55,402 nt of DNA from Candidatus Fervidifonticultor quintus (GTDB lineage Bacteria; Sysuimicrobiota; Sysuimicrobiia; Sysuimicrobiales; Humicultoraceae). Positions within the stretch are counted from its first letter, which is position 1; every line of letters starts with the position of its first letter. Where the stretch lies: the NCBI GenBank assembly GCA_031459535.1, contig JAVKIJ010000009.1:1-55402 (forward strand), written 5' to 3'. The translations under genes and the position numbers were made by a program. The notes beneath the pieces were generated by a model. The model was not told where the DNA came from. It saw nothing but the letters and a program-made list of their open reading frames with translations, and ran no database searches. Shown in pieces: positions 10,740 through 30,490 of the stretch.

Positions 10740-10777
10740 ACATTGAGCCCGATGAGGGTACAAGGCGGTGAGTTGGC

Positions 10778-12115
10778 ATGGTCCAGCCCGTTGCTGACTA
10801 TCAAACAAAGCACGCCCGATACGTCCTGACCCCCTGGTCGGCCCAGGCAGGGCTGAGACCACCGGTCATCGTCCGGGGCGAGGGGCGGTTCCTGTACGAC
10901 GCGGAGGGTAAGCGATACCTGGACTTCTCGGCGGGGCTGGTGGCGGTCAACCTGGGGCATGCCCACCCCAAGGTGGTGCGGGCTATGCAGGCACAGGTCG
11001 AGCGGTTGTGCTACGCGCCGCCGTCGTTCTTCCACGACGCCCGGGCCGAGCTCGCCGAGACCCTGATCCGGCTGGCTCCCTGGCCGGAGGAAGGGAGGGT
11101 GTTCTTCACCACGGGCGGGGCCGAAGCCAACGAAGACGCGGTGAAGATGGCCCGGTTGATCACCGGACGCTTCAAGGTCCTCGCGGCCTACAAGTCCTTC
11201 CACGGCTCGAGCTTCGGGGCCGCCACGCTCACAGGCGATGACCGTCGCTTCGCGGCCGAGCCCGGAATCCCCGGGGTGATCCATTTCTTCACCCCCTACC
11301 CGTACCGCAGTCCGTTCTTCACCACGGATCCTCGAGAGGAGACGCACCGGGCGCTGGAGCACCTCGAGCGGGTCCTGCACTATGAGGATCCCCGGCGGGT
11401 CGCCGCGGTCATCCTGGAACCCGTGGTGGGCACCAACGGGGTGATCGTGTATCCGGACGGATACCTAGACGGTGTCCGCAAGATCACCGAGGGGCACGGT
11501 ATCCTCCTGGTGTTCGACGAGGTGATGACCGGGTTCGGACGGACCGGGGCGCCCTTTGCCGCCCGCCGCTTCGGCGTGACCCCGGACATGATCACCTTTG
11601 CGAAGGCGGTGACCTCGGCCTATGTGCCCCTGGGCGGGGTCCTGGTTCGCGAGTCGCTGGCCCGTCACTTCGACGGCAACGTGCTGTGGTGCGGACACAC
11701 GTTCTCGGGACACCCTCTGGCCATGGCCACCGCGCTCGCGGTGCAGGAGGTCTACCGCGAAGAGGGCCTGCTCACCCGTGCCCTGGACGTGGAAGGCTGG
11801 CTGCGACCGGCCCTGGAGGGACTCCGCCAGCGCCATCCCGTGGTGGGCGACGTGCGTGGGCTGGGAGCCTTCTTCGCGCTCGAACTGGTCAGAGACCGCG
11901 AGAGCCGGGAGCCCCTGGCGACCCCCTACGGCGGCGACCTGGCACTGGTCCGAGAGTTCCAGGCCGCGCTGCGGAATCGCGGTGTGTACGTCTTCGGCCG
12001 GTTCAACATCTTCCTGGTCGCGCCGCCGCTGACGATCACCAGGGAAGAGGTCGAGATCGGCATCGAGGGGCTGGACGGTGCCCTGGCGGAGCTCGCCGCC
12101 AGGGTGGCGGCCTGA
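10778..12115 (+). CDS. Class III PLP aminotransferase (omega-amino acid type, e.g. beta-alanine/taurine:pyruvate)
   Basis: GKRYLDFSAG..NLGH, FTTGGAEANE, SFHG, FDEVMTGFGRTG, PDMITFAKAVTS (PLP Lys), GHTFSGHP. Confidence 0.9.
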   Translation: MVQPVADYQTKHARYVLTPWSAQAGLRPPVIVRGEGRFLYDAEGKRYLDFSAGLVAVNLGHAHPKVVRAMQAQVERLCYAPPSFFHDARAELAETLIRLAPWPEEGRVFFTTGGAEANEDAVKMARLITGRFKVLAAYKSFHGSSFGAATLTGDDRRFAAEPGIPGVIHFFTPYPYRSPFFTTDPREETHRALEHLERVLHYEDPRRVAAVILEPVVGTNGVIVYPDGYLDGVRKITEGHGILLVFDEVMTGFGRTGAPFAARRFGVTPDMITFAKAVTSAYVPLGGVLVRESLARHFDGNVLWCGHTFSGHPLAMATALAVQEVYREEGLLTRALDVEGWLRPALEGLRQRHPVVGDVRGLGAFFALELVRDRESREPLATPYGGDLALVREFQAALRNRGVYVFGRFNIFLVAPPLTITREEVEIGIEGLDGALAELAARVAA

Positions 12116-12158
12116 TCCGGGGCGGTGGGGGGCTCCACGACGACGGGAGGTACGCAGG

Positions 12159-14272: not shown

Positions 14273-14866
14273 ATGATTTTCGACGATCTGAATAGGCAGA
14301 TCGTGCTCATGCTCCAGAAGGACGGCCGCCTCAGCAATAGCGAGATTGCCAGGCGGCTGGGCGTGACCGAGACGACCGTTCGCCGACGGATCGACCGGAT
14401 GGTGGAGGACGGGATCATCCGCGTGGCGGCCGTGGCCAACCCGTTCAAGATCGGCCTACAGACCGTGGCGCTCATCAGCATCGACGTGGACCTTCCCAAA
14501 CTCGAGGACGTGGCCCGGGCGCTGGTGGCGATGAAGGAAGTGCGATATGTCGGATACGCGACCGGCGCCCACGACATCGTCATCGAGGCGATCTTTCCCG
14601 ACAACGCCGCACTGCTCAAGTTCGTCTCGGAACGGCTCGGGCGAATTCCGGGCATCCGGCGCACCGAGACATCCATCCAGCTCGACGTCCTCAAGCGCAG
14701 TTACGAGTGGGAAATCCCCGCCCTGCGCGCGGAGGCGACCGATCGCCGGCAGGTGCCCCGGCGGCGGATTGCCCCGACCCGCCGCCGCGCTCAAGACCGC
14801 GCAGGTGCAGACACCGGACGGCCCGAACCGGAGCTGCCGATCCGGGCCCACCAGGAGGAGGTGTGA
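14273..14866 (+). CDS. Lrp/AsnC-family transcriptional regulator
   Basis: DDLNRQIVLMLQKDGRLSNSEIARRLGVTETTVRRRIDRM HTH, then ATGAHDIVIE..IPGIRRTETSI. Confidence 0.95.
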   Translation: MIFDDLNRQIVLMLQKDGRLSNSEIARRLGVTETTVRRRIDRMVEDGIIRVAAVANPFKIGLQTVALISIDVDLPKLEDVARALVAMKEVRYVGYATGAHDIVIEAIFPDNAALLKFVSERLGRIPGIRRTETSIQLDVLKRSYEWEIPALRAEATDRRQVPRRRIAPTRRRAQDRAGADTGRPEPELPIRAHQEEV

Positions 14867-14868
14867 AG

Positions 14869-16437
14869 ATGAGGAACCGTGCTCGCAGCGGATCGCTGGG
14901 CGTGCTCGTCGTGCTCCTGGCGGCGTTGATCCTGCCCTCAGGGACCTCGGGCGCACCGAGCGCGCCGAAACGAGGGGGCACGCTGGTCATCTCGCTGGGC
15001 ACCGACGTGCCAATCTTCGACTGCAATCTCGCCACCGGCATCCCCAACCTGGGCATCATTCTCATGGCAACCGAGACGCTGACCCGAATCGATCCCAACG
15101 GGGGGCGGGTGCTCCCGCACCTGGCGGAGTCGTGGTCCCTGAGCCCAGACGGCAAGACCTGGACGTTCAAATTGCGCAGGGGCGTCCGGTTCCACGATGG
15201 GACGCCCTTCAACGCCGAGGCGGTGAAATTCAGCATCGAGCGTCTCCTCGACCCGGGGCTGCGCGGGCCCGCCCGGCCGGCATTCACCATGATCGAGCGG
15301 GTCTCCCCGGTTGATGATCTCACGGTCAATCTGGTGACCGAGGGTCGGTTTTCGGCGCTGCCGGCGCAGCTCGCGTATGCGCCCATCTGCATGAATAGCC
15401 CAACCCAGGTCAGGAAGCTGGGCGAACGGTACTACACGGCCCCCATGGGCACCGGTCCCTTCAGGTTCGTCCACCATATCCGCGGCCGCGAGGTGCGGCT
15501 GGAGGCCAATCGGGAGTACTGGGGCGGAGCGCCGCATCTGGACGCGGTCCTCATGCGGCCGATTCCTGAGACCGCCGCGCGCATCATGGCGCTCGAGGCC
15601 GGTGAGGTGGACGTCGCCTACCACGTGCCGCCCCGCGACGCCGACCGGCTACGCAAGAACCCTCGATTCGAGGTGTTGGCTCCGCCGCCGCAGCGGAAGA
15701 TCTTCATCGGCATGAACGTGCTGTGGGGGCCCTTTCGGGACAAGAGGGTGCGCCAGGCTCTCAACTACGCCGTCGACAAGCAGGCGATCGTAGACCGGAT
15801 CTTCCTCGGGCTGGCCAGGGTGACGGACTCGCCGGTGCCGCATACGGGCTACGGCTACTTTCCCACCAGGACGTACGAGTACGACCCGGCCAAGGCCAGG
15901 CGGCTGCTGGCCGAAGCGGGATATCCCAGGGGGTTTGAGGCCACCCTGCACTTTGCGCCGGGACGCTACCTGATGGACACCGAAGTCGTTGAAGCCGTCC
16001 AGGCCTACCTGGCGGCCGTCGGCGTCCAGATGAAGATCATCAGGATGGAGTGGGGTGCCTACCAGGCCGCCCAGCGGAAGGGTCCCGAGGAGAGTACCCT
16101 GCAGATGTTCTTCATCGGCTGGGGACTGCCCACCCTCGACGCCGACCTGGCAGTGAAGGACTACATGCAGGAATCGTGGGCACCCGGCGGCCTGAACAAC
16201 ATGTTCTACGCGCGCCGGGACCTGACCGACCTGATTCTCGCCCAGCGCTACTTTGCCGAGCCCGAACGGCGTCTCTACGCCCTCAAGAAGATTCAGGAGA
16301 TCATCATGGAGGATGCGCCGCAGATCTTCCTGTACACCGAACCGCAGATTCACGCCAAGCGGGCGGACGTCCGGGACTTCACCATTTCCGTGACCGAGAT
16401 GGTGGACCTCATGCACAGGACCTGGCTCGACCGCTAG
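14869..16437 (+). CDS. Peptide/nickel ABC transporter substrate-binding protein (family 5)
   Basis: Signal peptide, PHLAESWSLSPDGKTWTFKLRRGVRFHDGTPFNAEAVKFS, GTGPF, DKRVRQALNYAVD. AGGAGG upstream. Confidence 0.93.
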   Translation: MRNRARSGSLGVLVVLLAALILPSGTSGAPSAPKRGGTLVISLGTDVPIFDCNLATGIPNLGIILMATETLTRIDPNGGRVLPHLAESWSLSPDGKTWTFKLRRGVRFHDGTPFNAEAVKFSIERLLDPGLRGPARPAFTMIERVSPVDDLTVNLVTEGRFSALPAQLAYAPICMNSPTQVRKLGERYYTAPMGTGPFRFVHHIRGREVRLEANREYWGGAPHLDAVLMRPIPETAARIMALEAGEVDVAYHVPPRDADRLRKNPRFEVLAPPPQRKIFIGMNVLWGPFRDKRVRQALNYAVDKQAIVDRIFLGLARVTDSPVPHTGYGYFPTRTYEYDPAKARRLLAEAGYPRGFEATLHFAPGRYLMDTEVVEAVQAYLAAVGVQMKIIRMEWGAYQAAQRKGPEESTLQMFFIGWGLPTLDADLAVKDYMQESWAPGGLNNMFYARRDLTDLILAQRYFAEPERRLYALKKIQEIIMEDAPQIFLYTEPQIHAKRADVRDFTISVTEMVDLMHRTWLDR

Positions 16438-16516
16438 CCGGATTCCGGGAAGACGGCGTCAAGCCGGCGAGGGGGTGGCCGGCGCGGGCGCGCGTCGCGG
16501 ATCGCGCATCACGGCC

Positions 16517-17437
16517 GTGAAGCAGTACATTGCCCGCCGCCTGGGCCTGATGGTCCCGCTGCTATTCGGGATCTCGGTGATTGTGTTCGTGTTCATCAGG
16601 CTGATCCCGGGCGACCCCGCCGAATTGATGGCCAGCCAGTGGGCCACAAAGAAGGACATCGAACTGATCCGGCACGCCTGGGGGCTGGACCGCCCGCTGC
16701 ACGTCCAGTACCTGGTGTTTCTGTGGAACCTGGCGCGCGGCGACCTGGGCCGCTCGGTGGTGTCCAACACGCCCGTCACCAGGGAGATTCGCGAGCGCTA
16801 CCCCTACACGATCCAGCTGGCCGTGGCCAGCATGGCGGTGGCCATCGCGGTTGGGACGGCGGCCGGGGTCATCTCCGCCGTCCGCCCGTACGCCCTCACC
16901 GACAATCTCTCCATGGTGCTGGCCCTGCTCGGCGTGTCCACGCCCGGGTTCTGGATGGGCCTGATGATGATGTTGCTCTTCGCCGTGATCCTGGGATGGC
17001 TGCCCGCGACCGGGGCCGGGACCATCGGGCATCTGGTCATGCCTGCGGCCACGCTGGGTTTCGCGGCCGCTGGCATCCTGGCGCGCCAGACGCGTTCGAG
17101 CATGCTGGACGTGCTCCGCCAGGAGTACATCTTCACCGCGCGCGCCAAGGGGCTTCGCGAAGCCGCGGTGATCGGACGACACGGGCTGAAGAATGCCCTG
17201 ATTCCCGTCGTGACCGTTGTCGGGCTGCAGTTTGGCACCCTGCTGGGCGGCTCGGTGGTCATCGAGAGTGTCTTTGCCTGGCCTGGCATGGGCCGTCTCC
17301 TTGTGGATGCCATCATGACCCGCGACTATCCCGTGATCCAGGCGGCTGTGCTGCTGTTTGCGACGACCTTCGCCGTCATCAATCTGGCCGTGGACCTGCT
17401 CTACGGATACCTGGATCCCCGCATTCGCTATGGCTGA
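16517..17437 (+). CDS. Peptide ABC permease (DppB/OppB-like)
   Basis: LIPGDPA, GLDRPLHVQY, EYIFTARAKGL, GSVVIESVFAWPGMG, RDYPVIQ. Start is uncertain (16475 or 16517). Confidence 0.92.
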   Translation: MKQYIARRLGLMVPLLFGISVIVFVFIRLIPGDPAELMASQWATKKDIELIRHAWGLDRPLHVQYLVFLWNLARGDLGRSVVSNTPVTREIRERYPYTIQLAVASMAVAIAVGTAAGVISAVRPYALTDNLSMVLALLGVSTPGFWMGLMMMLLFAVILGWLPATGAGTIGHLVMPAATLGFAAAGILARQTRSSMLDVLRQEYIFTARAKGLREAAVIGRHGLKNALIPVVTVVGLQFGTLLGGSVVIESVFAWPGMGRLLVDAIMTRDYPVIQAAVLLFATTFAVINLAVDLLYGYLDPRIRYG

Positions 17438-18344
17438 GGTCGTCGCAGGCGACCGGCGAGGTGATCGAGCGGGTATCGGAGGGCTCGGGGCAAGGCGGCA
17501 CCCTGCCAGCCGGCCGGTGCGCGTGTTCCTGCGCAATCGCGCCGCGCTGGCAGGGCTGCTGATCCTGGGCCTCCTGATCCTCGCGGCGATCCTGGCACCG
17601 TGGATTGCCCGCGACCCCTTGGAAGCCGATCTCTCCCGAATGCTGGCTGCGCCGTCGGTCGGCCACCCGCTTGGTACCGACGAGTTGGGCCGGGACCTCT
17701 TCAGCCGCACCCTTTACGGGGCCCGGATCTCGCTCACGCTGGGCTTGGTGGCTGTGGGGATCGCCCTGTCCGTGGGGGTACCGCTGGGCGCGGTCGGCGC
17801 CTATCGAGGTGGGTGGGCGGACCTGGCGGTCATGCGCTTCGTAGACATCCTGCTCTCTTTCCCGCCAATTCTCCTGGCCATCAGTGTGGTCGTCGTCCTG
17901 GGTCCGAGCCTCTACAACGCCATGATTGCCATCGGCATTGCGCAGATGCCGGTCTACGCCCGGCTGGTTCGGGGGGTGGTCCTCTCGCTCAAGGAACGGG
18001 ACTTCGTGGAAGCCGCCCGGGCGCTGGGGGTTGGCGAGGCGCGCGTGGTGTTCAGGCATATCCTCCCCAACTGCCTGTCCCCGCTGATCGTGCAATCGAC
18101 GCTCCAGGTGGCGTCGGCGATCCTGTCGGCCGCTGCGCTGGGATTTCTGGGGTTGGGCGCGCAGCCGCCGACCCCTGAATGGGGTGCCATGTTGAGCAAG
18201 GCCAGGCTCTACCTCCGGGTCGCCCCGCACCTGTCGATCTTCCCTGGGCTGGCGATCCTCACGACCACGCTGGCCTGCAACTTGTTCGGTGATGGTGTGC
18301 GGGATGCGCTTGATCCACGTATGGCCATGCGTCTTGGCCTGTAA
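17430..18344 (+). CDS. Peptide ABC permease (DppC/OppC-like)
   Basis: HPLGTDELGRDLFSRTLYGARISL, DFVEAARALG, RHILPN, LGLGAQPPTPEWG, GDGVRDALDP. Confidence 0.93.
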   Translation: MAEVVAGDRRGDRAGIGGLGARRHPASRPVRVFLRNRAALAGLLILGLLILAAILAPWIARDPLEADLSRMLAAPSVGHPLGTDELGRDLFSRTLYGARISLTLGLVAVGIALSVGVPLGAVGAYRGGWADLAVMRFVDILLSFPPILLAISVVVVLGPSLYNAMIAIGIAQMPVYARLVRGVVLSLKERDFVEAARALGVGEARVVFRHILPNCLSPLIVQSTLQVASAILSAAALGFLGLGAQPPTPEWGAMLSKARLYLRVAPHLSIFPGLAILTTTLACNLFGDGVRDALDPRMAMRLGL

Positions 18345-18359: not shown

Positions 18360-19571
18360 ATGACACAGGCAGTGCACCGGGTACTCGAACACGTGGACGG
18401 TGAGTATGTCCTGGAATTGACGCGGCGCCTGATCCGCGTTCCCAGCACGGCGCCGCCGCTCCACCTGCGGGAGATCGCGGACGTCGTCGCCGGAGAACTG
18501 CGGTCCTACGGCGCGGACGTCACGGTCGTCGGCGACTCCGGGGAAGGGTGGGAACGGCCCAACGTGCTGGGAGTTGTCCGGGGTCAGGCACCCGGGCCCA
18601 CCCTGATGCTGGCTGCCCATACGGACGTGGTCCCCGCCTATGACCTCTCGCTCTGGCGCCACCCGCCGTTCGAGGCCCGGGTCGAGGATGGGGTGCTCCA
18701 CGGCCGCGGCTCCGCCGATACGAAGAGCAGCCTTGGCGCCATGATGGCGGCGCTGCGCGCCTTCCTCCAGTCGGGGGTGCCTCTCGCCGGCAGCGTGGTG
18801 CTGGCAGCGTGGGCTGGCGACGAGTGGCAGCCGCCCGGCGCCCGCTGGTTCAATGGGCTGTCCTACCTGGCGCTGGAGCACGGTTTGAAGGCTGACGCCG
18901 GGATCTTCGGCGAGCCCTACGATCTGCGCATCTGCCCGGCGAGCCGCGGCCGGGTGTGGTTCCGGATCGAGGTCGGCGGCGAGGCCACCCACTCGGCCAC
19001 AGGCATGGGGATCAATGCCATCCTCGGCGCCATGAAGGTCATCGATGCCGTCTACGGCATCAAAGTCGGGACGCATCCGCTGCTGGGCCACGACACCATC
19101 AACGTGGGGACCATCGACGGCGGCGTACAGCCGAACATCGTGCCGGATCACTGCACGATGACGTTTGATATCCGCTTCGCGATGCCGCTGACGACGGCGG
19201 CCATCGAACAGATGGTGCGGGAAGCCGTGGACCGGTTGCGGCCAGACCCGAAGTTCATCTTGAAGGATCTCGTGGTCACCGAGCGGCGCGAGCCGATCGA
19301 GTTCCCCAGCGACGGCACGCTGGTGCGCGCCCTTCGGCGGGCAGGTGACGCAGCCGGGACGCCGTTGCAAGTCGGCGGCGCCGTTTCCTTTGGCGATATC
19401 GCCGACTGGAAGGATCGCATGGGGCTGACCCAGGCCTGCCTGTTCGGCCCGGGCAAGACCGCCCAGGCCCACGCCATCAACGAGCACATCGCGGTCAGCG
19501 ACCTGCTGGCCGCCGCGCGGATCTACGCCGCGGCGATCGTGGCCTTCTCGGAGCTGGAGACGGGGCCGTGA
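18360..19571 (+). CDS. M20 metallopeptidase/deacylase (ArgE/DapE-like), paralogue 1
   Basis: [47 protein letters not shown]. Confidence 0.9.
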
Positions 19572-20785
19572 TGGTCCCCCGGGAGGCGGCCAGAGCCGTC
19601 CTGGCCCACCTGGACATGGAATACCTCACGTGGGTGCTCAGCCGTCTGGTGAGGTATCCCAGCGTCGCCCCTCCCTGTCGGCTGGGCGGGATTGCGGCGT
19701 TCGTCGCCAGAGAGCTGCGGTGCCAGGGCCTTTGTACCACGATCACCGGGGACCTCGGGGACGGGTGGGAGCGGCCCAACGTGCTCGCTGTGCTGCCCGG
19801 GGCGTCGGATGCGTGGGCGCTCATCCTATCCGCGCACACGGACGTGGTCCCCCCATACGATGAGACCGCGTGGCGGCGCCCGCCGTTTGAAGCGTGGATC
19901 GAGGACGGGATCCTGCACGGGCGCGGATCGGCCGACTGCAAGGGCAGCCTGGCGGCCATGATGGCCGCGACCCGCGCGCTTGCCCGGGCCCGGATCCCGC
20001 TGGCCCGCGCAGTGGCGCTCCTGGCGTGGGCTGGCGATGAGTGGCATCCGCCCGGCGCCCGCTGGTTCAACGGTGAGACCTTCATGGCCGCCAACGGGTA
20101 TCTACGCCCAGCAGCCTACCTGGGAGGCGAACCCTACGACCTGAAGATCTGCTGCGCCAGCCGCGGGAGGCTGTGGATAGGAGCCCGCGTGGCGGGCACC
20201 GCCTCGCACGCGGCGTCAGGCACCGGCGTCAACGCCATCCTCGGCGCCCGGCGGGTGATCGAAGCCATCTACGGGCTGCCCCGATACAGGCACGCCGTGC
20301 TGGGCGAGGACACCATCAACGTCGGGACGATCCGCGGAGGCCGGCAGACCAACACGGTTCCCGACGAGTGCTCCCTCACCTTTGACATTCGGTTCGCGCC
20401 GCCGAGGTCGGCCGCCGAAGTCCGCGCGTGGGTGGAGGCGGCGACGGCCAACGTGCAGCGGGCAGGAGATGGGTGGACCTGCGAGCTGGCCTTTCCAGAA
20501 CGGCGGGAGCCCATCGTCTTCCCCAGCGACGGACTCCTGGTCCCGGCGATGCAGGAAGCGGCCCGCACGGCCCTGGGACGGGAGCTGCCCCTCGGCGGAG
20601 CGGTTTCCTTTGGGGACATCGCCGACTGGAAGGACCTGGTCGGCATCCGGGAAGCGTGCTTGTTCGGTCCGGGCGAGACTCGGCAGGCTCACGCGATCAA
20701 CGAGCGCGTCCGGCTGGACGACGTCATGGCTGCTGCCAGGGTCTACGCGCTCACGGCGCTGCTGTGCGCGGGCATGGTGTCATGA
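19568..20785 (+). CDS. M20 metallopeptidase/deacylase, paralogue 2
   Basis: [33 protein letters not shown]. Confidence 0.9.
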
Positions 20786-21741
20786 CGCTGCGGGAGGTGT
20801 GCGACAGCATCGTCGAGGAGTGCCTGGCCCTCCGGCCGACCGAGAGCCTCCTGATCGTCGGTGCGTGCCGGGAGCGCCCGCGCCATCATGCCCTGCTCTG
20901 GGAGGCATCCGAGCGACGGGGGGCGCACGCCCTCCGCCTGGCCGTGCCACCCCTGACTGCGACCTGCGGGGTGCCGGCCGCTGTGGTTGGGGCCGCCATG
21001 AGCGCGGCCGCCGCCGTGGTGCTGGGGACGCCCTGGATCTTTCCGCACGACCTCCGTCGGCAGGCGCTGGCCGCGGGGGCCCGGGTGCTCTCGCTGTGCA
21101 CGGTCACCGATGAGATGCTGCTCCGGGCCGCGGCAGGGCCGCACGCGCGCCTCGCACAGTACACGCGGCGTCTGGCGGACCGTATCAGGGCCGCGTCGGA
21201 GTGGGCGGTGCGTACCCCTGCCGGCACCCATCTGCAAGCGCGGATCTCGGGGCGCCCCGTCATCGTCCTCGACGGGCTCGCCCGCACCCCAGGGGCCTCG
21301 TCGGGGCTGCCGGCCGGGGTGATCGCCGTGACGCCTATCCCGGGGACGGCCGATGGCCGGTTGGTGCTCGACGGCAGCATCGACGGCTACGGACTGGTCC
21401 GGGAGCCGCCCAGCGTGGTCATCGCGCACGGCCAAGTCGTGGACATCACAGGCGGCGAGGCGGCGGAGTTCCTGCGCAGGCGGTTCGCTTCGACCGATGT
21501 GGCGGCTCAACGATTGTGCGAGGTCGGCACCGGCACCAACCCCCACGCGGCTTACACCGGGAACCTCGTCGAGGATGAGCGGGTGCGAGGTTCCTCGCAT
21601 GTGGGATTTGGCGGCAACACCCACCTGGGAGGCGAGAATGCCAGTCCGCTCCATTTCGACGCCACGATGCGGCGCCCCACGATTCTCCTGGATGGCGAGC
21701 CCCTCGTCGTGGACGGTACGCCGGTCTTCGAAGGTCCATAG
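20782..21741 (+). CDS. M29/aminopeptidase T-like (leucyl aminopeptidase-like) metalloprotein
   Basis: [51 protein letters not shown] 20782 overlaps the upstream stop. Confidence 0.8.
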
Positions 21742-21801
21742 AAGAGCCGAGGTGACTCCGCCCGCGCGGATGCGCCGGAACCACAAAGGACGTGAGGTGA
21801 C

Positions 21802-23034
21802 ATGAACACCGAGCAGCGGATCCTGTCTGCAGTTGACGATGCTTACGTGGTGAACCTCCTGCAACGGTTGGTGCGGTTTCCGAGCATCAACCGGCACCTC
21901 GACCCCGAGGGCTCATGCGTGGAGATCGCCAGGGCCGTAGAGGATGAACTGAGGTCCTACGGACTCCCGGTCACCCGGGATGACCGTGGCGTGGACCAGG
22001 GGTGGGGGCCCAACGTCGTCGCGACCCTCGGTTCGGGGAACCCACCCGTGCTGATCCTGACCACCCACATGGACGTGGTGCCGCCCTACGATCTCTCTCG
22101 CTGGCACCACCCGCCGTTCTCAGGGGACATCACCGACGGCGTCATGCACGGTCGGGGCACCGTGGACGCCAAGGGGAGCCTGGCAGCCATGATGGCTGGC
22201 GTCCGCGCGATCGCCAGAGCGGGGATCGAGCTCGAGGGTACGGTCAAGCTGGTGGCCTGGACTGGCGACGAGGCCCATCCCGCCACGATGGCATACTTCA
22301 GCGGGATCACCTACCTGGTGCGGACCGATCAATTGAAAGGTGACGCGCTCATCTGGGGCGAGCCCTATGACCTGCGTGTGGTTCGAGGCTCCCGCGGGCG
22401 GGTGTGGCTGCGCTACGTCGTCGGCGGCGAGGCGTCCCATTCCGCGTCGGGCGCAGGCGTCAACGCCATCCTGTCCGCCGCCAGACTCATCGACGCCATC
22501 TACACCATTCCGCGTCTGACCCACCCCCTGTTGGGGACCGACACGATCAACGTCGGCACCATCAAGGGCGGGGTGCAGACGAACATGGTTCCCGATAGCT
22601 GCACGGTGACATTCGACATCCGGTTCGGCCCCCCGCGCAGCGTGGCCGACGTGCTGGCCCAGGCGCAGGAGCGGGTGGACCGCCTCTCGCGCGCAGTGCC
22701 GGGTTTCCGGCTCCTGTCGGCCGATGTGCCAGAGCGCAAGGAGCCCGTGGAGTACCCCGAGGGCCTGTCGCTGTACGAGGCCACCATCGAGGCAGGCGTC
22801 CACGCCATCGGTCGCCGCCTGGAGTATGGTGGCGCGCTTTCGTTCGGTGATACCTCTGAGTGGCGCGAGCAGGCGGGCTTGCGGCAGATCTGCTTCTTCG
22901 GACCTGGCAAGACGGCCATGGCGCATGCCATCAATGAAGAAATCGCGATCGCCGATCTCGTGGCTGCCGCGAAGATCTACGCCCTGACCGCGGCAGCGTA
23001 CTGTGGGGCCGCCGATTCGAGGGTCATGATATGA
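21802..23034 (+). CDS. M20 metallopeptidase/deacylase, paralogue 3
   Basis: HMDVVP, GRGTVDAK, WTGDEA, GEP, FGPG..AHAINE. Confidence 0.9.
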   Translation: MNTEQRILSAVDDAYVVNLLQRLVRFPSINRHLDPEGSCVEIARAVEDELRSYGLPVTRDDRGVDQGWGPNVVATLGSGNPPVLILTTHMDVVPPYDLSRWHHPPFSGDITDGVMHGRGTVDAKGSLAAMMAGVRAIARAGIELEGTVKLVAWTGDEAHPATMAYFSGITYLVRTDQLKGDALIWGEPYDLRVVRGSRGRVWLRYVVGGEASHSASGAGVNAILSAARLIDAIYTIPRLTHPLLGTDTINVGTIKGGVQTNMVPDSCTVTFDIRFGPPRSVADVLAQAQERVDRLSRAVPGFRLLSADVPERKEPVEYPEGLSLYEATIEAGVHAIGRRLEYGGALSFGDTSEWREQAGLRQICFFGPGKTAMAHAINEEIAIADLVAAAKIYALTAAAYCGAADSRVMI

Positions 23035-24353
23035 GCGCCGTAACCCACCCTCAGGCGGGAGGCACGGAGCTGACCGCAGTCGAGGAACGGATTCTCAGGT
23101 CGCTGGACGAACGGTACGCCATTGACCTCCTCAAGCGCCTGGTGGCTTTCCCCAGCTACTTCCCGCACTACGAGGAAATCGCGGCATTCGTCGAGGGTGA
23201 GATGCGCAGCTACGGTCTCGATGTGTTCGTGAAAGGCGACAGCGGGACCGGGCAGGTCGAGAGCACGGCGCTGGCAGAGCGTGCGCTTGTCTATGCCGAG
23301 GAATTCGGCGAGGCCATGACCAGGCCGTGGACGAGACCCAACGTGGTAGGCAGCATGAAGGGCACAGCGGGCGGACCGACGCTCATCATGAGGGCCCATA
23401 CGGATGTGGTCCCGCCCTACAACCTGTCGCTCTGGAAGACCGATCCCTTTGTCCCCACCGAGGCAGACGGGGCCATCTACGGGCGGGGGACGGCGGACGC
23501 CAAAGGAAGCCTGGCCGCCATGATGGCTGCTACCCGGGCGGTGGCGGCGTCGGGCGTCCGACTGCGGGGGAACCTGGTGCTCGTTGCCTGGGTCGGCGAC
23601 GAGTTCAAACCCCCCGACTCCCGATACTTCGACGGCATCAGCTACCTGGCCATGAACGATCTGATCAAGGGCGAGATGTTTATCGCGGGCGAGCCCTACG
23701 ATCTGCACATCTGTCCCGTTACCCGCGGGCGCATCTGGTTCAGCATCCACGTGGGCGGCGAGTCCACCCATGGAGCCAACTATCCGGTGAAGGGGATCAA
23801 CGCCATCCTGCAGGCGTACAAGCTGATTCAGGAGATCTTCCAGCTACCGCTCGGCGAGCATCCCTTGACTGGAAGAGATTCCATCAATCTGGGCACCATC
23901 CATGGTGGGAAGCAGCCGAACATCGTGCCGGAGGACTGCCACTTCACGTTCGACATCAGGTTTGCTCCGCCGTTGACATCCGCGCAGATTGAGCAGATGG
24001 TCCACGAGCGGATTCAGAGGCTGGAGGCGACAGATCCGAAGTTCACCGTGAAATCCATCCAGGTGACGGAGCGTCGAGAACCTCTGGAGTTCCCTCGGGA
24101 CTGCCAGTTGACACGGGCGATGCTCCGGGCCGGCAGAGCGGTTGGCCGGGAACTGCAGTTTGGTGGTGCTGTCTCTTTTGGCGCCCTGGCCTCGTACAAA
24201 GACCGTGTCGGCGTCAAGGAGTGCGTCTACTTCGGGCCGGGCGAGACCGAACAGGCTCACGCCACCAACGAGCGCGTGCTGGTCGCCGACGTGCTGGTGG
24301 CCGCGGAGGTGTATGCCCTGACGATCGCACAGGTCTGCGGCGCTCACCAGTGA
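23031..24353 (+). CDS. M20 metallopeptidase/deacylase, paralogue 4
   Basis: HTDVVP, GRGTADAK, WVGDEF, GEP, FGPG..AHATNE. Carries an N-terminal insertion of about 25 aa relative to the others. Confidence 0.9.
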   Translation: MSAVTHPQAGGTELTAVEERILRSLDERYAIDLLKRLVAFPSYFPHYEEIAAFVEGEMRSYGLDVFVKGDSGTGQVESTALAERALVYAEEFGEAMTRPWTRPNVVGSMKGTAGGPTLIMRAHTDVVPPYNLSLWKTDPFVPTEADGAIYGRGTADAKGSLAAMMAATRAVAASGVRLRGNLVLVAWVGDEFKPPDSRYFDGISYLAMNDLIKGEMFIAGEPYDLHICPVTRGRIWFSIHVGGESTHGANYPVKGINAILQAYKLIQEIFQLPLGEHPLTGRDSINLGTIHGGKQPNIVPEDCHFTFDIRFAPPLTSAQIEQMVHERIQRLEATDPKFTVKSIQVTERREPLEFPRDCQLTRAMLRAGRAVGRELQFGGAVSFGALASYKDRVGVKECVYFGPGETEQAHATNERVLVADVLVAAEVYALTIAQVCGAHQ

Positions 24354-24449
24354 CCGGGGGACCGCCAGGAGCCCGTCCCGGGACGCCCGCGCTCTCTTTG
24401 AGAACAAGAGACCCGACCACCGCGTTTGGATAGGGGAGGGGGTGTTCAC

Positions 24450-25136
24450 ATGCGGCGCGCGGGCGGGTCAGCACTCCTGGCCCTGCTGTGCGTGGTCGCC
24501 TCGGCCGGGCAGGTCGGCGGCATCGGTCTGGCGGCCCAGCCCGGCCCTGTTCTGGCGCTCACCGGCGTCTCCCACTCCCTTGACGGTCAGGTACTGGTCG
24601 TCAGCGGGTCGGTAGAGAACCGGGGGCAGGCTCCTGTGGCCCAACTGGTCATTGACGCCACCGGGTACACCTCCGCTGGCGAGGCGGCGTTCTTTGGCAG
24701 CGACGGCGTGCCCTGGAGCATTCCGCCGGGGGGTGTTGAGCCGTTCTCCATCAACCTCCCCCTGCGCAGGCAACTCATCCGCGACTATCAGGTGCGGGTC
24801 GCCCTTGCAAGCGCTCCCGGTCGGCCGCTGGCCAGCGTACGACGGGGCGTCGACGTGTCGCTCTACCACCCGCTGCTCATCTCGGTCGTGCGGCTCCGGG
24901 GTACGGTCCTGGGGGGCACGCTGATCGTGCGCAGCGATGTCGGGGGATGGCCGGTGGCCGAAGTCACGGCAGAGGCCCTCCTGGTGGTACCCGGTCGCCG
25001 GACGAACCGCCTGCAGACCCTCGTCATCGACGTTCCCGCCGACCGCGAGCGCAGGATTGATATCGGCATCGCCGGAGCCGAGCTGGTCAGCCTGCGCGCT
25101 GTAGACGTCCGGCTCACGACGACCTGGGCGCCTTAG
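24450..25136 (+). CDS. Secreted protein with FxLYD-like Ig-fold domain
   Basis: Signal peptide MRRAGGSALLALLCVVASAG, then VSGSVENRG..VIDATGYTSAGE..IPPGGVEPF. Confidence 0.6.
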   Translation: MRRAGGSALLALLCVVASAGQVGGIGLAAQPGPVLALTGVSHSLDGQVLVVSGSVENRGQAPVAQLVIDATGYTSAGEAAFFGSDGVPWSIPPGGVEPFSINLPLRRQLIRDYQVRVALASAPGRPLASVRRGVDVSLYHPLLISVVRLRGTVLGGTLIVRSDVGGWPVAEVTAEALLVVPGRRTNRLQTLVIDVPADRERRIDIGIAGAELVSLRAVDVRLTTTWAP

Positions 25137-25216: not shown

Positions 25217-27604
25217 CTAACGAGGCGGCTCAAAGCCTCTGGCCAGGAGCAGCATCGTCTCCTGCCTCAGGACCTCGGCCGCCGCTTTGGTCGCCAAGCG
25301 TGGCGCAGCCCCTTGGACCTCACTGACAAACGCCCGCAGCTCGCCTTTGGCCGCCGCCCGCAGGCCGGCCGCGGCATACGCCCGTGCCCGTATCAGGCGG
25401 CCGTTGAGGGCTGCTGCGGCACGGGATTCGCGGATCGCGCCTGCGGCCCGCAGGTGCTCCAGGACGTTCATGAGCCCGCCGATGGTGAGCGCGTTGAAGC
25501 GCGCGCCCAGCGGATCGTGATCGGCCACGCCGCGCGGGCCGTCGGCATCGTGGGCGTCGGGCCAGTCGCTGTTGACGTGCGACGCCCAGACGTCGATGAG
25601 GTCCGCCAGCAGGGCCGGTGTGACGAACAGGTGATCCAGGGTCTGCGCCTGTCCCTGGAAGATGTAGCTGTAGGCGCCAAGCGGCGCCGTTTCCTTCAGC
25701 CTGTCCCACAGGTTGGCGAGACCCAGCGCGTACAGCGGCGCCAGCTGGTCGCTGGGATAGAGGGGCTGCCCGGGTGCAAACGGATCATCCGGCCTCGGGA
25801 AGACGTTGAGATCCCCGCCGGCGATAACCCGCACGTCGGGGCCGATCCGCCGCAGCGCCGCAATAATGGCCGCGGCGTAGGCGGCCTGTTCCCTGCGCTG
25901 GCCGACCCGGGCGGCAGGCATGCTGCTGAAGTGATTGTTGACCGCATAGACGGTCGCAAAGGCACTGGCGCCGATCCGGGAACGCCAGACGCGGAAGCGC
26001 GCCACCTGCGGCGCGCGGGTATAGACATTCCTGCCGTCCACGCCGGTGCTGCGATCCACGTCGGGGGGCAGGACGGCATTCAGCGCCTTGGGGTTCTGGG
26101 CCTGGGCGTTGTAGGCCAGGCCCGCACCCCGGTACTGAACCCGGGGACGCACGCCGAGCACTGGATCGGCGGGATCGGGCGGGACCAGTTCCACGCGATC
26201 GGTCCGGTAGAGATATGCCGAGGTGATACCCCGGTCGTCGGCGCCATCACGGTCAACCGCCGCTGCGTAGCGCGGGCCGCCCATGCGCTCGATGGTCAGC
26301 GCCAGCTCCTGGAGCACGTCTGGTTTCCCGTCTGCGTTGTCTGTGGTGCCGCACGAGAGCGTGCCCCCCGCCACCGCGCAGATGTCCTGATCCTCGGCCT
26401 CCTGCACCATAATGATGTCCGGGCCGCGCAGGTCGTTGACGATCTGGGATGCGAGCTCCCCGAGTCTTCGTTGATAGGCGGTAGTACTGGCCGGCAGGTA
26501 GTCAAAGGGCGGGGACACCCCCGGACACCCTGGATTGCCCGAGAAGTCACATCTATCGAAGGGATCATCTCTGAAATCATAGAGGCTCCGCACGTTGAAG
26601 GTGACCACGCTGTACTCGAAGGCCCGATCGAACGGCCGGAGCGGCCCGTTGGCGGATGGGTCGGGACCGCCTGCAAGCCTGACCTGGCGCTCGGGCTGGA
26701 CCGAATACTTGCCGAAGGAGAAGTGAACGCCGCCAATGGCTACCTCGGTGACGATGTCAAAAGTGCGCGCCGGAGCGATCAGCACCCGGTTGGCGCCCGC
26801 GGCCGCCTTGATCCCCAGGCTGCCCATGAGGATCCGGTAGCCGTTGCCATCGTCGAAGAGCTGCGAAGTCACGTTGTCGTAGGGGTGGGGGTCGCGAAAG
26901 ACGCGACGTGCGTAGGGATTCCCGCGCAGCGCGACCGGATGGTCTCCGCGAATCACCCAGACCTCGGCGTCGAGGTTGCTGGCGAAGACCGATCGGCGGC
27001 TGGTGACGATGCTGCCGGCGGGCACCCCGGCCCGCATGCCCTCCCGGCGCTCCCAGTAGCAGTCGGCCTCCTGCAGGCTGTCCGGGGGTGCCGCCTCGAA
27101 GGCTGGCACCTCGGCGTCGAGGTTGACTTCCCGGCGCACGACCCCGACGAGCCGGGGGCTGGTGATCTCGGTGAGGAAGTTGAACTCGGCCACGCGACCC
27201 CGGAGCACGACCTCGTCGCCGACCGCGGGGACATATGTGCCGGGCGTGTCGTCACGCGGCAGCGCCGGCAGTCTGCCCGTGAATACGAAGATTCCGTCGG
27301 ATGTGGAAGCATCCGCATCTCTGGTCATGCCGGTGTTCTGCAGGAAGAACCCGTATACAGACCCGCCGCCCGGCGTCCGGGCCAGCGTCCGCTGGTAGAT
27401 GACGCCTCGCACCCGCACCTCCATGGGGCCGGGTGCGTTCCCCGATCGGGGCGCAAACGGCGAACGGTGCAGGCGGCACTGTGCGCGTTCCGGCACGGCT
27501 CCCTGGATGACCCCGATGGGCACCGGCTCCACGTGGGCAGGGACCGATACCGTGCCCCCAAACAGCAGGAGCCCGACGCCGACGGCAACGACGACCCGGC
27601 TTAC
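25217..27604 (-). CDS. Extracellular endonuclease/exonuclease/phosphatase (ExeM/YhcR-like) with OB-fold and C-terminal FIMAH-like helical domain
   Basis: IGVIQG..SPF..VRGVI..GFFLQ..DADASTSDGIFVF (OB-fold), TFNV, PDIIMVQE, NNHFSS, GDLN, YSYIFQGQAQTLDH, DHDP. The first canonical start is GTG 27532, but a signal peptide continues in frame to 27604. Confidence 0.88.
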   Translation of the reverse strand, partial: VSRVVVAVGVGLLLFGGTVSVPAHVEPVPIGVIQGAVPERAQCRLHRSPFAPRSGNAPGPMEVRVRGVIYQRTLARTPGGGSVYGFFLQNTGMTRDADASTSDGIFVFTGRLPALPRDDTPGTYVPAVGDEVVLRGRVAEFNFLTEITSPRLVGVVRREVNLDAEVPAFEAAPPDSLQEADCYWERREGMRAGVPAGSIVTSRRSVFASNLDAEVWVIRGDHPVALRGNPYARRVFRDPHPYDNVTSQLFDDGNGYRILMGSLGIKAAAGANRVLIAPARTFDIVTEVAIGGVHFSFGKYSVQPERQVRLAGGPDPSANGPLRPFDRAFEYSVVTFNVRSLYDFRDDPFDRCDFSGNPGCPGVSPPFDYLPASTTAYQRRLGELASQIVNDLRGPDIIMVQEAEDQDICAVAGGTLSCGTTDNADGKPDVLQELALTIERMGGPRYAAAVDRDGADDRGITSAYLYRTDRVELVPPDPADPVLGVRPRVQYRGAGLAYNAQAQNPKALNAVLPPDVDRSTGVDGRNVYTRAPQVARFRVWRSRIGASAFATVYAVNNHFSSMPAARVGQRREQAAYAAAIIAALRRIGPDVRVIAGGDLNVFPRPDDPFAPGQPLYPSDQLAPLYALGLANLWDRLKETAPLGAYSYIFQGQAQTLDHLFVTPALLADLIDVWASHVNSDWPDAHDADGPRGVADHDPLGARFNALTIGGLMNVLEHLRAAGAIRESRAAAALNGRLIRARAYAAAGLRAAAKGELRAFVSEVQGAAPRLATKAAAEVLRQETMLLLARGFEPPR

Positions 27605-27744
27605 TGCACAATCACCCGCCGGTGCGTCACGAGCAGCCAGATCAGGAACGCGAGAAGCAGGACGACAACCAGTTCGGCCTGGCCTGACACGCCCAGGTAA
27701 CGTCGCACCAGGGACCGCAGTCGCGCCTCCAACACTGTCAACAT
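27601..27744 (-). CDS. 47-aa single-pass membrane peptide (not in the ORF track), Flp/pilin-like leader
   Basis: MLTVLEARLRSLVRRYLGVSGQAELVVVLLLAFLIWLLVTHRRVIVQ*. AGGAGGT RBS at 27757-27751, 6 nt before the ATG. Confidence 0.75.
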   Translation of the reverse strand: MLTVLEARLRSLVRRYLGVSGQAELVVVLLLAFLIWLLVTHRRVIVQ

Positions 27745-27834
27745 CGGCTCACCTCCTGTGTTGCGTCGTCCAACGTGCGGCGCCGGCGTCTGTCCGCCTG
27801 GCTCCGAGCCCTACAACAGTGTGTTGGCGAGGGG

Positions 27835-27874
27835 GGTTCCAAAACCATTCCTGCAGGGTTCCAGATAGGTTCCA
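27835..27874. promoter_or_regulatory. Four direct repeats at 11-bp period (GGTTCCA/CATTCCT/GGTTCCA/GGTTCCA)
   Basis: Units start at 27835, 27846, 27857 and 27868, in the divergent intergenic region. Confidence 0.6.
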
Positions 27875-27908
27875 GGACTTGGCCGGCTGGTCGCGAAAGC
27901 AGGTCATA

Positions 27909-28811
27909 GTGGCGACCTGGACCACGTTCCCCGCCAAGGAACTCCCGCGCCCAGTCCGCGCGTTGGCTGACCAGGTGCATAGCGACGGCGGCCAGGTGCT
28001 GACCGTCTATCAGGATCCAGTCGGCGATCGCTGGCAGCTCTTCTGCCTGCTGCCCACAGACCGCGTGGACCCTACGCCCTACCAGCGCGATCTCTCCAAA
28101 CCCCACGCGCAGCGCCTCCAGGAGGTGATCCGGAAACTCGACCGTTTCATCGACCCCATCGTTGCTGTCTCGCCGCACCCCGGTCTCTACTGGACGCCGA
28201 ACGGGCACCACCGGCTCGCCGCCCTCAAGAAGCTGAAGGCCGGGTTCGTCCCGGCCATTCTGATTCCCGAGGTCGAGGTGGCGTATCAGATCCTGGCTCT
28301 GAACACGGAGAAGGCCCACAACCTGAAGGAGAAGTCGCTCGAGGTCATCCGGATGTACCGGGCACTGGCCCGGGAGGCCCCGCGGACGGCCGAAGACGAC
28401 TACGCCTTTCAGTTCGAGGCAGCCCACTTCATCACCCTGGGGCTGCTCTACGAGACCAATCCCCGGTTTGCGGGCGGCGCATTCGTGCCCATCCTGCGGC
28501 GCGTGGACAGGTTCTTGAAGGCACCGCTGGCGAGGTCGCTGCAGGAGCGGGAGGAGCGGGCCGAACTGGTGCGCCGGGTTGACGAGACGCTCTCCGACGT
28601 GGTGGCGCGGCTGCGGCGTCGCGGGATCCGGCACCCCTACGTCAAGCCCTTCGTTCTGGCCCGGGTCAGTCCGCTCACACGCGCCCGGAAGACGCTGCCA
28701 TCGTTCGAGGTGACCTTCAGGAAACTGCAGGAGAATCTCCAGGAGTTCGACGTGGCGGCAGTCCGCTACGAAGACGTGGCTCAATCGGCCTTGATGGCAC
28801 CCCCGGGATAG
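27909..28811 (+). CDS. ParB/Srx N-terminal domain protein
   Basis: VDPTPYQRDLS..FIDPIVAV..YWTPNGHHRLAALKKL..ILALNTEK. GTG 27909 chosen; the ORF track extension to 27399 overlaps minus-strand genes. Confidence 0.75.
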   Translation: MATWTTFPAKELPRPVRALADQVHSDGGQVLTVYQDPVGDRWQLFCLLPTDRVDPTPYQRDLSKPHAQRLQEVIRKLDRFIDPIVAVSPHPGLYWTPNGHHRLAALKKLKAGFVPAILIPEVEVAYQILALNTEKAHNLKEKSLEVIRMYRALAREAPRTAEDDYAFQFEAAHFITLGLLYETNPRFAGGAFVPILRRVDRFLKAPLARSLQEREERAELVRRVDETLSDVVARLRRRGIRHPYVKPFVLARVSPLTRARKTLPSFEVTFRKLQENLQEFDVAAVRYEDVAQSALMAPPG

Positions 28812-28828: not shown

Positions 28829-30490
28829 ATGCTGCCGCACCGTCACGCGTACCGTCCGGTCGTGTTGGGTCGCCGGGGTGTCGTCACCTCCGCTCACCCG
28901 CTGGCGTCCGCGGCCGGCGCGCAGATCTTGCTGGAAGGCGGCAACGCCGTGGACGCCGCTGTAGCCACCGCCGCCGCGCTCACCGTGGTGGAGCCCTACA
29001 TGTCGGGTGCGGGCGGCGTCGGCGTCATGGTTGTCTCGTCGGCGCGCACAGGCCAACGTCATGTCCTCAACTTCGTGGGCAGGGTGCCGCAGGCCGCGGA
29101 CCCCGACCGGGCGACGCCCGACGACCTGGCCGGCGGGCCGCGTGCATGCCTCGTCCCGGGGAATCTGGGCGGGTGGCTGGCGGCCCACGAGCGCTTTGGC
29201 CGCGCTGGGCGCGAGACGGTCTTCGAACCGGCCATCCGGCTCGCCGAAGACGGGTTCCCCCTCACGCGAAAGAACTGCGAATTCATCGAGAGAGCCCGCG
29301 CGACGCTTGGGCGCTCGACGGAGGCGCAGCGGCTCTACGTGCCCGTCGGCCTGCCCAAGCTTGGGCAGGTCCTGGTCCAGAAAGATCTCGCTGCCAGTTA
29401 CCGACAGGTGGCCGAAGGCGGCGCCGACGTGTTCTATCGGGGGCCGATAGGCCGCGCGGTCTGCCGAGCCGTCCAAGAGGCGGGGGGCTGGCTGTGCGAA
29501 GACGACCTGGCCGCGTTCACACCGGAGTGGATGGCACCGCTGGCCACCCCGTTTAGGGGTGCGGAAGTGATCACGGTGCCGCCGCCCTTCGTCGCGTTCC
29601 AGGCGCTTCAGACCCTCAACATCCTCGAAGAGATGGACCTGGCGGGTTGGGGGCACAACTCGGCCGAGTACCTGCATCACGTCGTTGAAGCGGTGAAGCT
29701 GGCGAACGCCGACCGGCTGGCCTATGCGTGGGTCTCGGAGGTGCCGATCGCGGGGTTGCTCTCGAAAGCCTATGCCCGCGCGCAGCGGGCCCGGATCGAT
29801 CCGGCCCGGGCCGGCGTCAGTGAGGGCGAACGGTTCGATCCGCAGCGGCTGCCCGGCCAGATCGAGCCCGGTCGGCCGACGGAGTTTGCGCGCGAGGCGC
29901 CCGAGACGGCACATCCTCCGGACTTCACCAGGGAGCACACAACGCACTTCGCCGTGGCCGATGCCGAGGGCACGGTGGTCACCGTGACCCAGACCCTGGG
30001 CGCGCCTTTCGGGTCTGGCTTCGCCGTCCCGGGCACGGGCATCGTGCTCAACAATCTGCTGCAGTGGCAGGACCTGGATCCAGCCAGCCCCAACCGGATG
30101 CGTCCCGGCCGCCGGGTCGGCACCAACATGGCGCCGATGCAGGTGTTCCGCGACGGGGAGTGTGTGATGTCCATGGGGACGCCGGGCTCATACGGCATCT
30201 TGCAGACCACGCCGCAGATGCTGCTCGCGGCCTTGGTCTTCGGCATGGACGTGCAGGAAGCCATCGAAGCCCCCCGCGTGCGCGTCTACCGCGACCGGCT
30301 GGTCGACGTCGAAGGCCGGATCGCTTCTGCGATCTGCGACGACCTGAGCCGGCGCGGCCACCAGGTCAACGTGATCGAGGACTGGTCGTGGGTCGTGGGG
30401 GGCGGGCAGGGGATCGTGCGCGACCCCGATTCGGGCGTGCTCCAGGGCGGTGCCGATCCCCGCCGTGATGGGTATGCCATCGCGTTGTAG
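28829..30490 (+). CDS. ggt: Gamma-glutamyltransferase family (Ntn hydrolase), cytoplasmic
   Basis: HPLASAAG..GGNAVDAAVA..VVEPYMSGAGG, nucleophile in EHTTHFAVAD, GTGIVLNN, GGADPRRDG. Confidence 0.9.
   Translation: MLPHRHAYRPVVLGRRGVVTSAHPLASAAGAQILLEGGNAVDAAVATAAALTVVEPYMSGAGGVGVMVVSSARTGQRHVLNFVGRVPQAADPDRATPDDLAGGPRACLVPGNLGGWLAAHERFGRAGRETVFEPAIRLAEDGFPLTRKNCEFIERARATLGRSTEAQRLYVPVGLPKLGQVLVQKDLAASYRQVAEGGADVFYRGPIGRAVCRAVQEAGGWLCEDDLAAFTPEWMAPLATPFRGAEVITVPPPFVAFQALQTLNILEEMDLAGWGHNSAEYLHHVVEAVKLANADRLAYAWVSEVPIAGLLSKAYARAQRARIDPARAGVSEGERFDPQRLPGQIEPGRPTEFAREAPETAHPPDFTREHTTHFAVADAEGTVVTVTQTLGAPFGSGFAVPGTGIVLNNLLQWQDLDPASPNRMRPGRRVGTNMAPMQVFRDGECVMSMGTPGSYGILQTTPQMLLAALVFGMDVQEAIEAPRVRVYRDRLVDVEGRIASAICDDLSRRGHQVNVIEDWSWVVGGGQGIVRDPDSGVLQGGADPRRDGYAIAL

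Follow-up and report, generated by a model that had tools for sequence, protein, structure and literature searches.

Peptide-uptake operons that carry their own peptidases are exemplified by iaaA-gsiABCD in Escherichia coli and by dpp, with DppA, in Bacillus subtilis. The co-catalytic metallohydrolases of the M20/M28 type are regarded as having a constant Glu-Glu (EE) pair. In M20 enzymes, the first Glu of this pair is the general base and the second one is a metal ligand, according to two studies (PMC11511702, PMC10699109). Here, we analysed a window of 55,402 nucleotides (contig JAVKIJ010000009.1 of Candidatus Fervidifonticultor quintus, positions 1 to 55,402), in which the interval 18360-24353 encodes four M20 paralogues related to DapE and ArgE, all carrying an Asp-Glu (D-E) pair at this place. 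We propose, with a probability of roughly 60%, that these proteins are active, dimeric and dinuclear M20A metallo-amidohydrolases that use Asp as base and act inside the cell, together with the product of an adjacent gene (X319), on an imported peptide-like compound.

The locus and its four M20 genes

According to the list of open reading frames (ORFs), the interval contains five genes of the + strand, i.e., A, B, X319, C and D:

18360..19571, + strand: M20 paralogue A, 403 amino acids (aa); WAGDEW, D154 being aligned with the general base and E155 with the ligand Glu
19568..20785, + strand: M20 paralogue B, 405 aa; WAGDEW; shares its first bases with the stop of A
20782..21741, + strand: X319, NicX/M29-like protein, 319 aa; start and stop of B joined in ATGA
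21802..23034, + strand: M20 paralogue C, 410 aa; WTGDEA
23031..24353, + strand: M20 paralogue D, 440 aa; WVGDEF; start and stop of C joined in ATGA

Residue numbers are those of paralogue A throughout. The initial annotation, made from the sequence alone, had described four tandem M20 genes. They are not strictly in tandem: the NicX/M29-like gene at 20782-21741 separates B from C, and it is because of this fifth, unrelated gene that the interval covers five genes. X319 had been overlooked, as had a linked importer of the SBP5/DppBC type (SBP5, family-5 solute-binding protein) and a sister group with a DDE motif, which shows the E-to-D change to be older than the signature, both described below. 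The junctions A/B (GTGA), B/X319 (ATGA) and C/D (ATGA) are overlaps of 4 bases, and the 60 bases between X319 and C include a purine-rich stretch that precedes the ATG.

The assignment of the four genes to the ArgE/DapE-like M20 proteins was confirmed. Indeed, these + strand ORFs all match both Peptidase_M20 (PF01546; 100-105 bits for a cut-off of 24.6, E 5e-30 to 2e-28) and M20_dimer (PF07687; 60-72 bits for a cut-off of 21). B, C and D are respectively 55%, 53% and 56% identical to A, and some 30 aa are inserted around residue 80 in D. The motifs listed by the initial annotation were found again in the four translations, for W-x-G-D-E as well as for HxD, GRGxxD, GEP and the C-terminal AH, which are present as AHTD/HMD (H87, D89), GRGxxD (D120), GEPYDL (E185) and AHA (H371); VVP[A/P]Y and GGA[V/L]SFG are also common to all copies. 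The loop following the D-E pair, described as a shared xPPxxRxFxG-like sequence, is conserved in A, B and D (xPPxxR[W/Y]FxG), whereas C reads HPATMAYFSG, without the PP and without the R. The five metal-ligand positions (H87, D120, E155, E185 and H371) are invariant in A-D, and H211, in the dimer domain, aligns with the His of the "GHVA" stretch in DapE 7lgp.

Comparison with DapE and ArgE

The AlphaFold2 (AF2) model of A (pLDDT 97.2, pTM 0.93) displays a catalytic and a dimerisation domain. Foldseek ranks DapE 7uoi (E 9e-34) and ArgE 7rsf on top, with CPG2 also among the matches (probability 1.00). With DapE (7uoi of Enterococcus faecium, 5vo3/3ic1 of Haemophilus influenzae), A shares the two-domain architecture (TM 0.79-0.83), the five metal-ligand positions, the dimer-domain His and an Arg where the dimer domain begins. 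On the other hand, these DapE proteins are only 21-25% identical to A, their base Glu is replaced here by Asp, the loop after the pair is about 8 residues longer here, and the genes belong to an importer operon instead of a lysine synthesis context. E. coli ArgE (7rsf/8uw6) resembles the four proteins in its fold and its ligand set and differs from them in the same two respects, i.e., the residue at the base position and the gene context.

In NCBIfam, A-D remain far under the cut-offs of the DapE equivalog models (NF006365, 132-160 bits versus 289; TIGR01246, 83-110 versus 361.8) and under those of the ArgE models TIGR01892 (134-162 bits versus 297.7) and PRK05111. The best-scoring model over the full length is TIGR01910, the "ArgE/DapE family deacylase" subfamily, a model to which no function is assigned, whose cut-off of 217.6 bits is narrowly missed by A, B, C and D (202.1, 186.7, 195.0 and 207.6 bits) and whose nearest aligned members read EE. 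Elsewhere in the genome, the canonical M20 genes that cover the site encode EE in five cases out of five.

An Asp aligned at the general-base position

The position of the Asp depends on the register of the alignment, and three methods were compared. Using phmmer, A aligns with E. faecium DapE 7uoi (E 2e-29) without gap and with top posteriors, a-w-a-G-D-E-w being placed on a-t-v-G-E-E-v. In a MAFFT alignment of 267 rows, composed of A-D and 263 proteins of at least 300 aa from homologue searches, the D-E pair falls on the E-E of 150 EE proteins. Likewise, hhalign superimposes D-E on E-E when 30 sequences with a W-x-[G/D]-D-E motif (W-type) are compared with 36 EE sequences (probability 100). 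Because the three methods agree, we assign D154 to the general-base position and E155 to the metal-ligand position at the level of sequence alignment, which is the ungapped register that the initial annotation had favored. The flanking residues behave in the same manner: G or D occupies position 153, and the same two residues mostly precede the pair in EE proteins (D in 97 and G in 42 of the 150), while positions 151-153 fit the -3 to -1 preferences of these proteins in the ungapped register only. Between sister proteins and EE relatives, little more than this single substitution separates the sequences, e.g., SVDDEIGGTLGSK (P0149) versus TVDEEIGGFKGLK (P0144).

In a register shifted by one residue, E155 would be the base and D154 the residue before it, and the site would become mononuclear by loss of a ligand, position 156 being W, A or F. 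D-E-x also fits the [D/G]-E-E motif in this way. Moreover, in some canonical relatives ("VSDEES"), the segment from the bridging Asp to the EE pair is longer by one residue, so that spacing alone is not decisive. However, HMMER, MAFFT and hhalign all select the ungapped register, the preferences at positions 151-153 are matched in this register only, and the DDE sister proteins align residue for residue with EE relatives on either side of the pair. We consequently hold the shifted register to be highly unlikely.

A single lineage of Asp-Glu enzymes

The 267 rows comprise 91 W-type D-E proteins, 20 other D-E proteins (DDE), 150 EE proteins and 6 others. The D-E pair is invariant in the W-type (91/91) and DDE (20/20) rows, versus E-E in the 150 relatives; the classical EE pair of M20A (MEROPS/Pfam) is thus replaced, with Asp in first place, in A-D and in all 111 D-E rows. 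In 88 of the 91 W-type rows, the residues at 87/89/120/154/155/185/211/371 read H-D-D-D-E-E-H-H, the remaining 3 being N-terminally truncated, and H211 is kept in all 91. The view that the change has been retained by selection, and does not reflect decay, is therefore borne out: it is a trait of a whole clade in which all the ligands are kept.

Database searches delimit this clade. Among the best 120 of 222 clusters at 90% identity found with A (E<=1e-20), the first 86 are W-x-[G/D]-D-E proteins (44-94% identity), followed by a few V-D-D-E-T proteins and, for the remainder, by [D/G]-E-E proteins. A profile search of 1.84 billion representatives gave 33,221 relatives at E<=1e-3, and in the best 150 of them the W-type and further DDE proteins rank first. 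In a second search, seeded with a DDE protein, about 80 of the 118 clusters that were new to the list belong to this group, all of them metagenomic. The DDE proteins ([TS]-[VNC]-D-D-E-[TI]-x-G) have the Asp at the same position and all the ligands, and they group with the W-type clade. Unlike the latter, they lack W151, the PP...F-x-G loop, GEPYDL and SFG. Given this sister group, the E-to-D change predates the WxGDE signature and extends beyond it. As for the gene context of the DDE group, none of the 74 other M20 matches in loci L017-L089 is a D-E protein, and the DDE protein P0124 has no match at E<=1e-70 in the 94 genomes of the phylum of the window.

Phylogenetic analyses gave a consistent picture. 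In a FastTree of 270 rows, the 96 W-type rows form one clade (support 100), and all 114 D-E rows taken together also form one, which includes no EE row (support 96). In a quick IQ-TREE run on 83 rows, from which the motif region (A residues 150-166) had been removed, the 27 W-type rows again form one clade (SH-aLRT 100). The free search of this run requires two changes to D-E. A tree constraining all the D-E rows together, which the free search had missed, is better by 33.7 log-likelihood units (p-AU 0.85). A single origin of the D-E pair is therefore the best-supported history. Several columns change together with the E-to-D substitution, including R198, D245, E308, E311, S343 and G345. In the M20 relatives P0131 and P0153, which share one well-supported branch, the pair reads S-E and G-E, with no carboxylate at the base position.

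The D-E lineage is an uncharacterised branch of M20A, as the initial annotation had supposed for the four genes. All its members come from metagenome-assembled genomes (MAGs) or metagenomes and bear generic automatic names; the clade has no solved structure and reaches no NCBIfam cut-off. Searches of the open-access full text, which cannot prove absence, gave no paper describing a natural Asp in place of the base Glu of M20 enzymes.

Within this lineage, A, B, C and D fall in four separate orthogroups. Orthogroup A is made of paralogue A and P0001-P0014, the lone copies present in L012 and L013, two loci of Anaerolineae, belong to orthogroup B, orthogroup C contains paralogue C and P0075-P0080 (the same type being present in L137 and L138), and orthogroup D contains paralogue D with P0067, P0069 and P0070. 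Since each copy has orthologues on other contigs, the duplications are old. No more than 5 columns (156, 165, 178, 179 and 361) have fixed residues that differ among the four orthogroups, and one of them, position 156, directly follows the D-E pair (Trp in paralogues A and B, Ala in C and Phe in D). These columns are suggestive of differing specificities, five being too few to infer them.

The importer, the regulator and X319

Upstream of the M20 genes, on the same strand, are located a regulator and the components of an importer:

14273..14866, + strand: Lrp/AsnC-family regulator (AsnC_trans_reg 1.8e-16, HTH_24/HTH_AsnC); exact end uncertain
14707..16437, + strand: SBP5 of a peptide/opine-type ABC importer (SBP_bac_5 1e-95)
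16475..17437, + strand: DppB-type permease (BPD_transp_1 5.5e-40, BPD_transp_1_N)
17358..18344, + strand: DppC-type permease (BPD_transp_1 5.5e-34, OppC_N); start uncertain

The 3' end of the Lrp ORF overlaps the longest reading of the SBP5 gene, whose true start is probably downstream of 14707, and the longest DppC ORF overlaps DppB. Among solved structures, SBP5 is closest to E. coli YliB/GsiB (1uqw, E 1e-71); an unnamed solute-binding protein and the opine-binding protein AgaA (6hlx, E 1.4e-51) come next, and NikA is also similar. It is not a GsiB equivalog, its score with the NCBIfam GsiB model being 263 bits for a cut-off of 594. As in the peptide-uptake operons cited above, an importer of the SBP5/DppBC type, with a binding protein nearest to GsiB/YliB, is thus encoded with intracellular hydrolases. 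In contrast with those operons, the hydrolases are of other families, and the related cassettes add M19, MmgE/PrpD and SDR genes.

The X319 protein itself has no match in the copy of Pfam that we searched, and its homologues match PF26233 (NicX), with or without PF02073 (M29). It is related to NicX 7cn3 by phmmer (E 1e-14), and its AF2 model (pLDDT 95) retrieves with Foldseek NicX 7cn3 (E 3e-30, TM 0.86), then AmpT (2ayi, 1e-15), PepS and AmpS, which places it in the M29/NicX family and fold. The residues E247, E264, D265, E266, H273, H291 and D293 (X319 numbering) are invariant in 40 sequences. The iron site of NicX consists of His265, Ser302, His318 and Asp320. Once X319 is aligned on 7cn3, E247 lies at H265 and G275 at S302, and only H291 and D293 match; X319 hence lacks two of the four iron ligands and does not have the NicX iron site. 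Its E / E-D-E / H / H-x-D set corresponds to the M29-type ligand pattern. In related loci, X319 adjoins a W-type M20 gene in 27 of 28 cases.

A recurrent cassette in bacteria and archaea

Close relatives of A are rare among the GTDB species representatives. Only five were found (52-61% identity), in two Anaerolineae, one unclassified bacterium, one Bathyarchaeia and one Desulfurococcaceae MAG. A W-type M20 gene is present in 53 of the 56 loci that we examined, including 51 metagenome loci (L090-L140). The initial annotation had pointed to the gene neighborhood as a source of information, and an importer-plus-hydrolase cassette indeed recurs around the W-type M20 genes. This M20 type sits in a cassette made of Lrp, SBP5, DppBC, M20 (1-3 copies), NicX-like, M19, MmgE/PrpD and SDR genes. 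Over the 27 related loci that reach 8 kb, the genes occur as follows, all figures being lower bounds owing to contig ends:

X319: 23/27 loci
SBP5: 23/27 loci
DppB: 24/27 loci
DppC: 24/27 loci
M19 dipeptidase: 20/27 loci
MmgE/PrpD-family protein: 17/27 loci
SDR "epimerase": 12/27 loci
Lrp, heading the cassette: 11/27 loci
Gamma-glutamyltransferase (GGT): 0/27 loci

These loci contain one M20 copy in 19 cases, two in 7 and three in 1, and four copies are seen in the window only. One D-E enzyme is therefore sufficient for the cassette, as single-copy loci exist. The number of M19 genes per cassette ranges from 1 to 3 elsewhere (L012, L013, L091-L113 and others). The SDR protein of related cassettes is annotated as "epimerase/dehydratase", and the nearest solved relative of the MmgE/PrpD protein is iminodisuccinate epimerase (E 3.5e-26). 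We found no paper on this cassette in the open-access full text, which cannot prove that none exists.

The M20 gene was detected at E<=1e-90 in 2 of 40 relatives of the genome and in none of the 5 genomes of the same genus (84-98% complete), which makes the cassette an accessory and patchy element. The occurrence of close homologues in Anaerolineae and in archaeal MAGs despite this patchiness suggests horizontal spread. The phylum of the genome is represented by only 94 species genomes, all of one order.

Proposed function and alternative explanations

In the reaction that we propose, H87, D120, E155, E185 and H371 would hold two metal ions, and D154 would accept a proton from the metal-bound water, directly or via one more water, before handing it to the leaving amine. 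A published ArgE model (PMC4320195) shows a bridging water that is hydrogen-bonded to a second water, itself bonded to the base Glu; by analogy, a water relay for D154 is plausible. The tetrahedral intermediate would be stabilised by H211 of the partner subunit; the dimer-domain His reaches the active site of the partner, where it takes part in the oxyanion hole (PMC10699109). R272 and other residues of the dimer domain may bind a free carboxylate of the substrate. The latter, a peptide-like compound or its fragments, would enter via the co-transcribed SBP5/DppBC importer, and the four copies, as old duplicates, would probably differ in their side-chain or linkage preference. Since the base position still holds a carboxylate, ordinary hydrolysis is the simplest reading.

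Several points weigh against this proposal. Engineered variants in which the base Glu is replaced by Asp, i.e., E134D in DapE and the equivalent in the Aeromonas aminopeptidase, reportedly lose most of their activity; if so, a natural Asp would need to be compensated. Moreover, the MmgE/PrpD and SDR proteins of the related cassettes do not fit well with plain peptide breakdown, and the window lacks M19, PrpD and SDR genes in cis, such genes being located on other contigs of the genome.

The swap itself could signal a change of chemistry or of bond class, as the initial annotation had chiefly argued, with a shorter base and a longer loop, rich in W and P, suited to a non-peptide amide (of the ureido, carbamoyl, N-carboxyalkyl or aminopolycarboxylate type). 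Deep, strictly kept and co-varying with other positions, the swap is compatible with this idea, as are the iminodisuccinate-epimerase-related MmgE/PrpD protein and the SDR of the cassette, the resemblance of SBP5 to opine-binding AgaA (6hlx) and NikA, and the existence of unusual M20 members, e.g., 5-nitroanthranilate aminohydrolase, which is among the fold matches. Nevertheless, with Asp the base is still a carboxylate, the partners have a peptidase-like profile (M29-like, M19, Dpp-type permeases), and the similarity of PrpD and of the binding protein to the named proteins is only remote, so that we find a new chemistry unlikely. The arrangement of the copies raises another possibility, which the initial annotation had named beside a stepwise processing, i.e., that A pairs with B and C with D in hetero-oligomers in which one partner, weak or inactive, serves as dimer-domain donor or as substrate-binding or regulatory subunit. 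The 4-base overlaps couple A with B and C with D at the translational level, the order A then B recurs in L090, L091, L092, L093, L095 and the relative genome G007, and the active sites of M20 dimers borrow residues from the partner (PMC10699109). However, every ligand, the Asp and H211 are kept in the four copies, none of which looks disabled. Furthermore, 19 of the 27 long related loci have a single copy, which speaks against an obligate hetero-oligomer: there, a homodimer must work. We give such complexes a small chance.

By their public automatic names and their best solved relatives, A-D could also pass for ordinary biosynthetic copies of DapE or ArgE, devoted to lysine or arginine synthesis. 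This is hardly credible, as they score far under the equivalog cut-offs (e.g., that of TIGR01892), occur as four copies within an importer operon, are patchily distributed (2/40 relatives, 0/5 genomes of the same genus) and coexist with other, canonical M20 genes in the genome. A broader proposal, which extends the hydrolysis of an imported compound to the whole cassette, is possible, and we put it forward tentatively, as one joint claim. The roughly ten genes (Lrp, SBP5, DppBC(DF), M20-DE, NicX-like, M19, MmgE/PrpD and SDR), with the Asp-base M20 and X319 as a core, would serve the use of peptide-like or aminopolycarboxylate/opine-like natural compounds, an unrecognised microbial nutrient. 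The cassette would have moved between the two domains, with Anaerolineae and Armatimonadota-labelled MAGs on the bacterial side and Bathyarchaeia and Desulfurococcaceae on the archaeal side. The replacement of Glu by Asp would be an adaptation of M20 chemistry to the substrate of the cassette, and two further Asp-base paralogues would have taken over, in this genome, the steps of M19, PrpD and SDR.

Other genes of the window

The region 4206-13649 encodes a PucR-family regulator (- strand), a Liv-type branched-chain amino-acid ABC importer (a binding protein, two permeases and two ATPases), a class-III aminotransferase and an aldehyde dehydrogenase. This block resembles a catabolic unit for amines or omega-amino acids. 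Downstream of the M20 genes, a 771-aa ORF of the - strand (25217-27532; high GC content at third codon positions, GC3, 0.82) has a weak match to the ExeM/NucH extracellular nuclease (74 bits for a cut-off of 300) and a weak Exo_endo_phos match. Two ORFs of the + strand, at 24426-25136 (236 aa, GC3 0.81) and 27399-28811 (470 aa, GC3 0.77), have no match in Pfam or NCBIfam, although their GC3 is typical of coding sequence. A GGT gene is located at 28829-30490, 4.5 kb downstream of the M20 genes (TIGR00066, 369.5 bits, over the cut-off); its proximity to a GsiB-like binding protein is suggestive, and it was considered as a member of the system but rejected, being absent from 53 of 53 related loci. 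It is followed at 30700-31755 by a response regulator with an HD-GYP-type domain (Response_reg and HD_5).

Significance

If these enzymes are ordinary dipeptidases, the value of the finding shrinks to a footnote on the tolerance of the active site. A deep natural lineage, bacterial and archaeal, which has kept an Asp at the base position and is otherwise conserved, nonetheless amounts to a natural experiment on the proton-shuttle position, with relevance for the work on DapE/ArgE inhibitors and for the engineering of aminoacylases and CPG2. Knowing which ligand the binding protein takes up would probably bring to light a new route of nutrition in heterotrophs that are not yet cultured.

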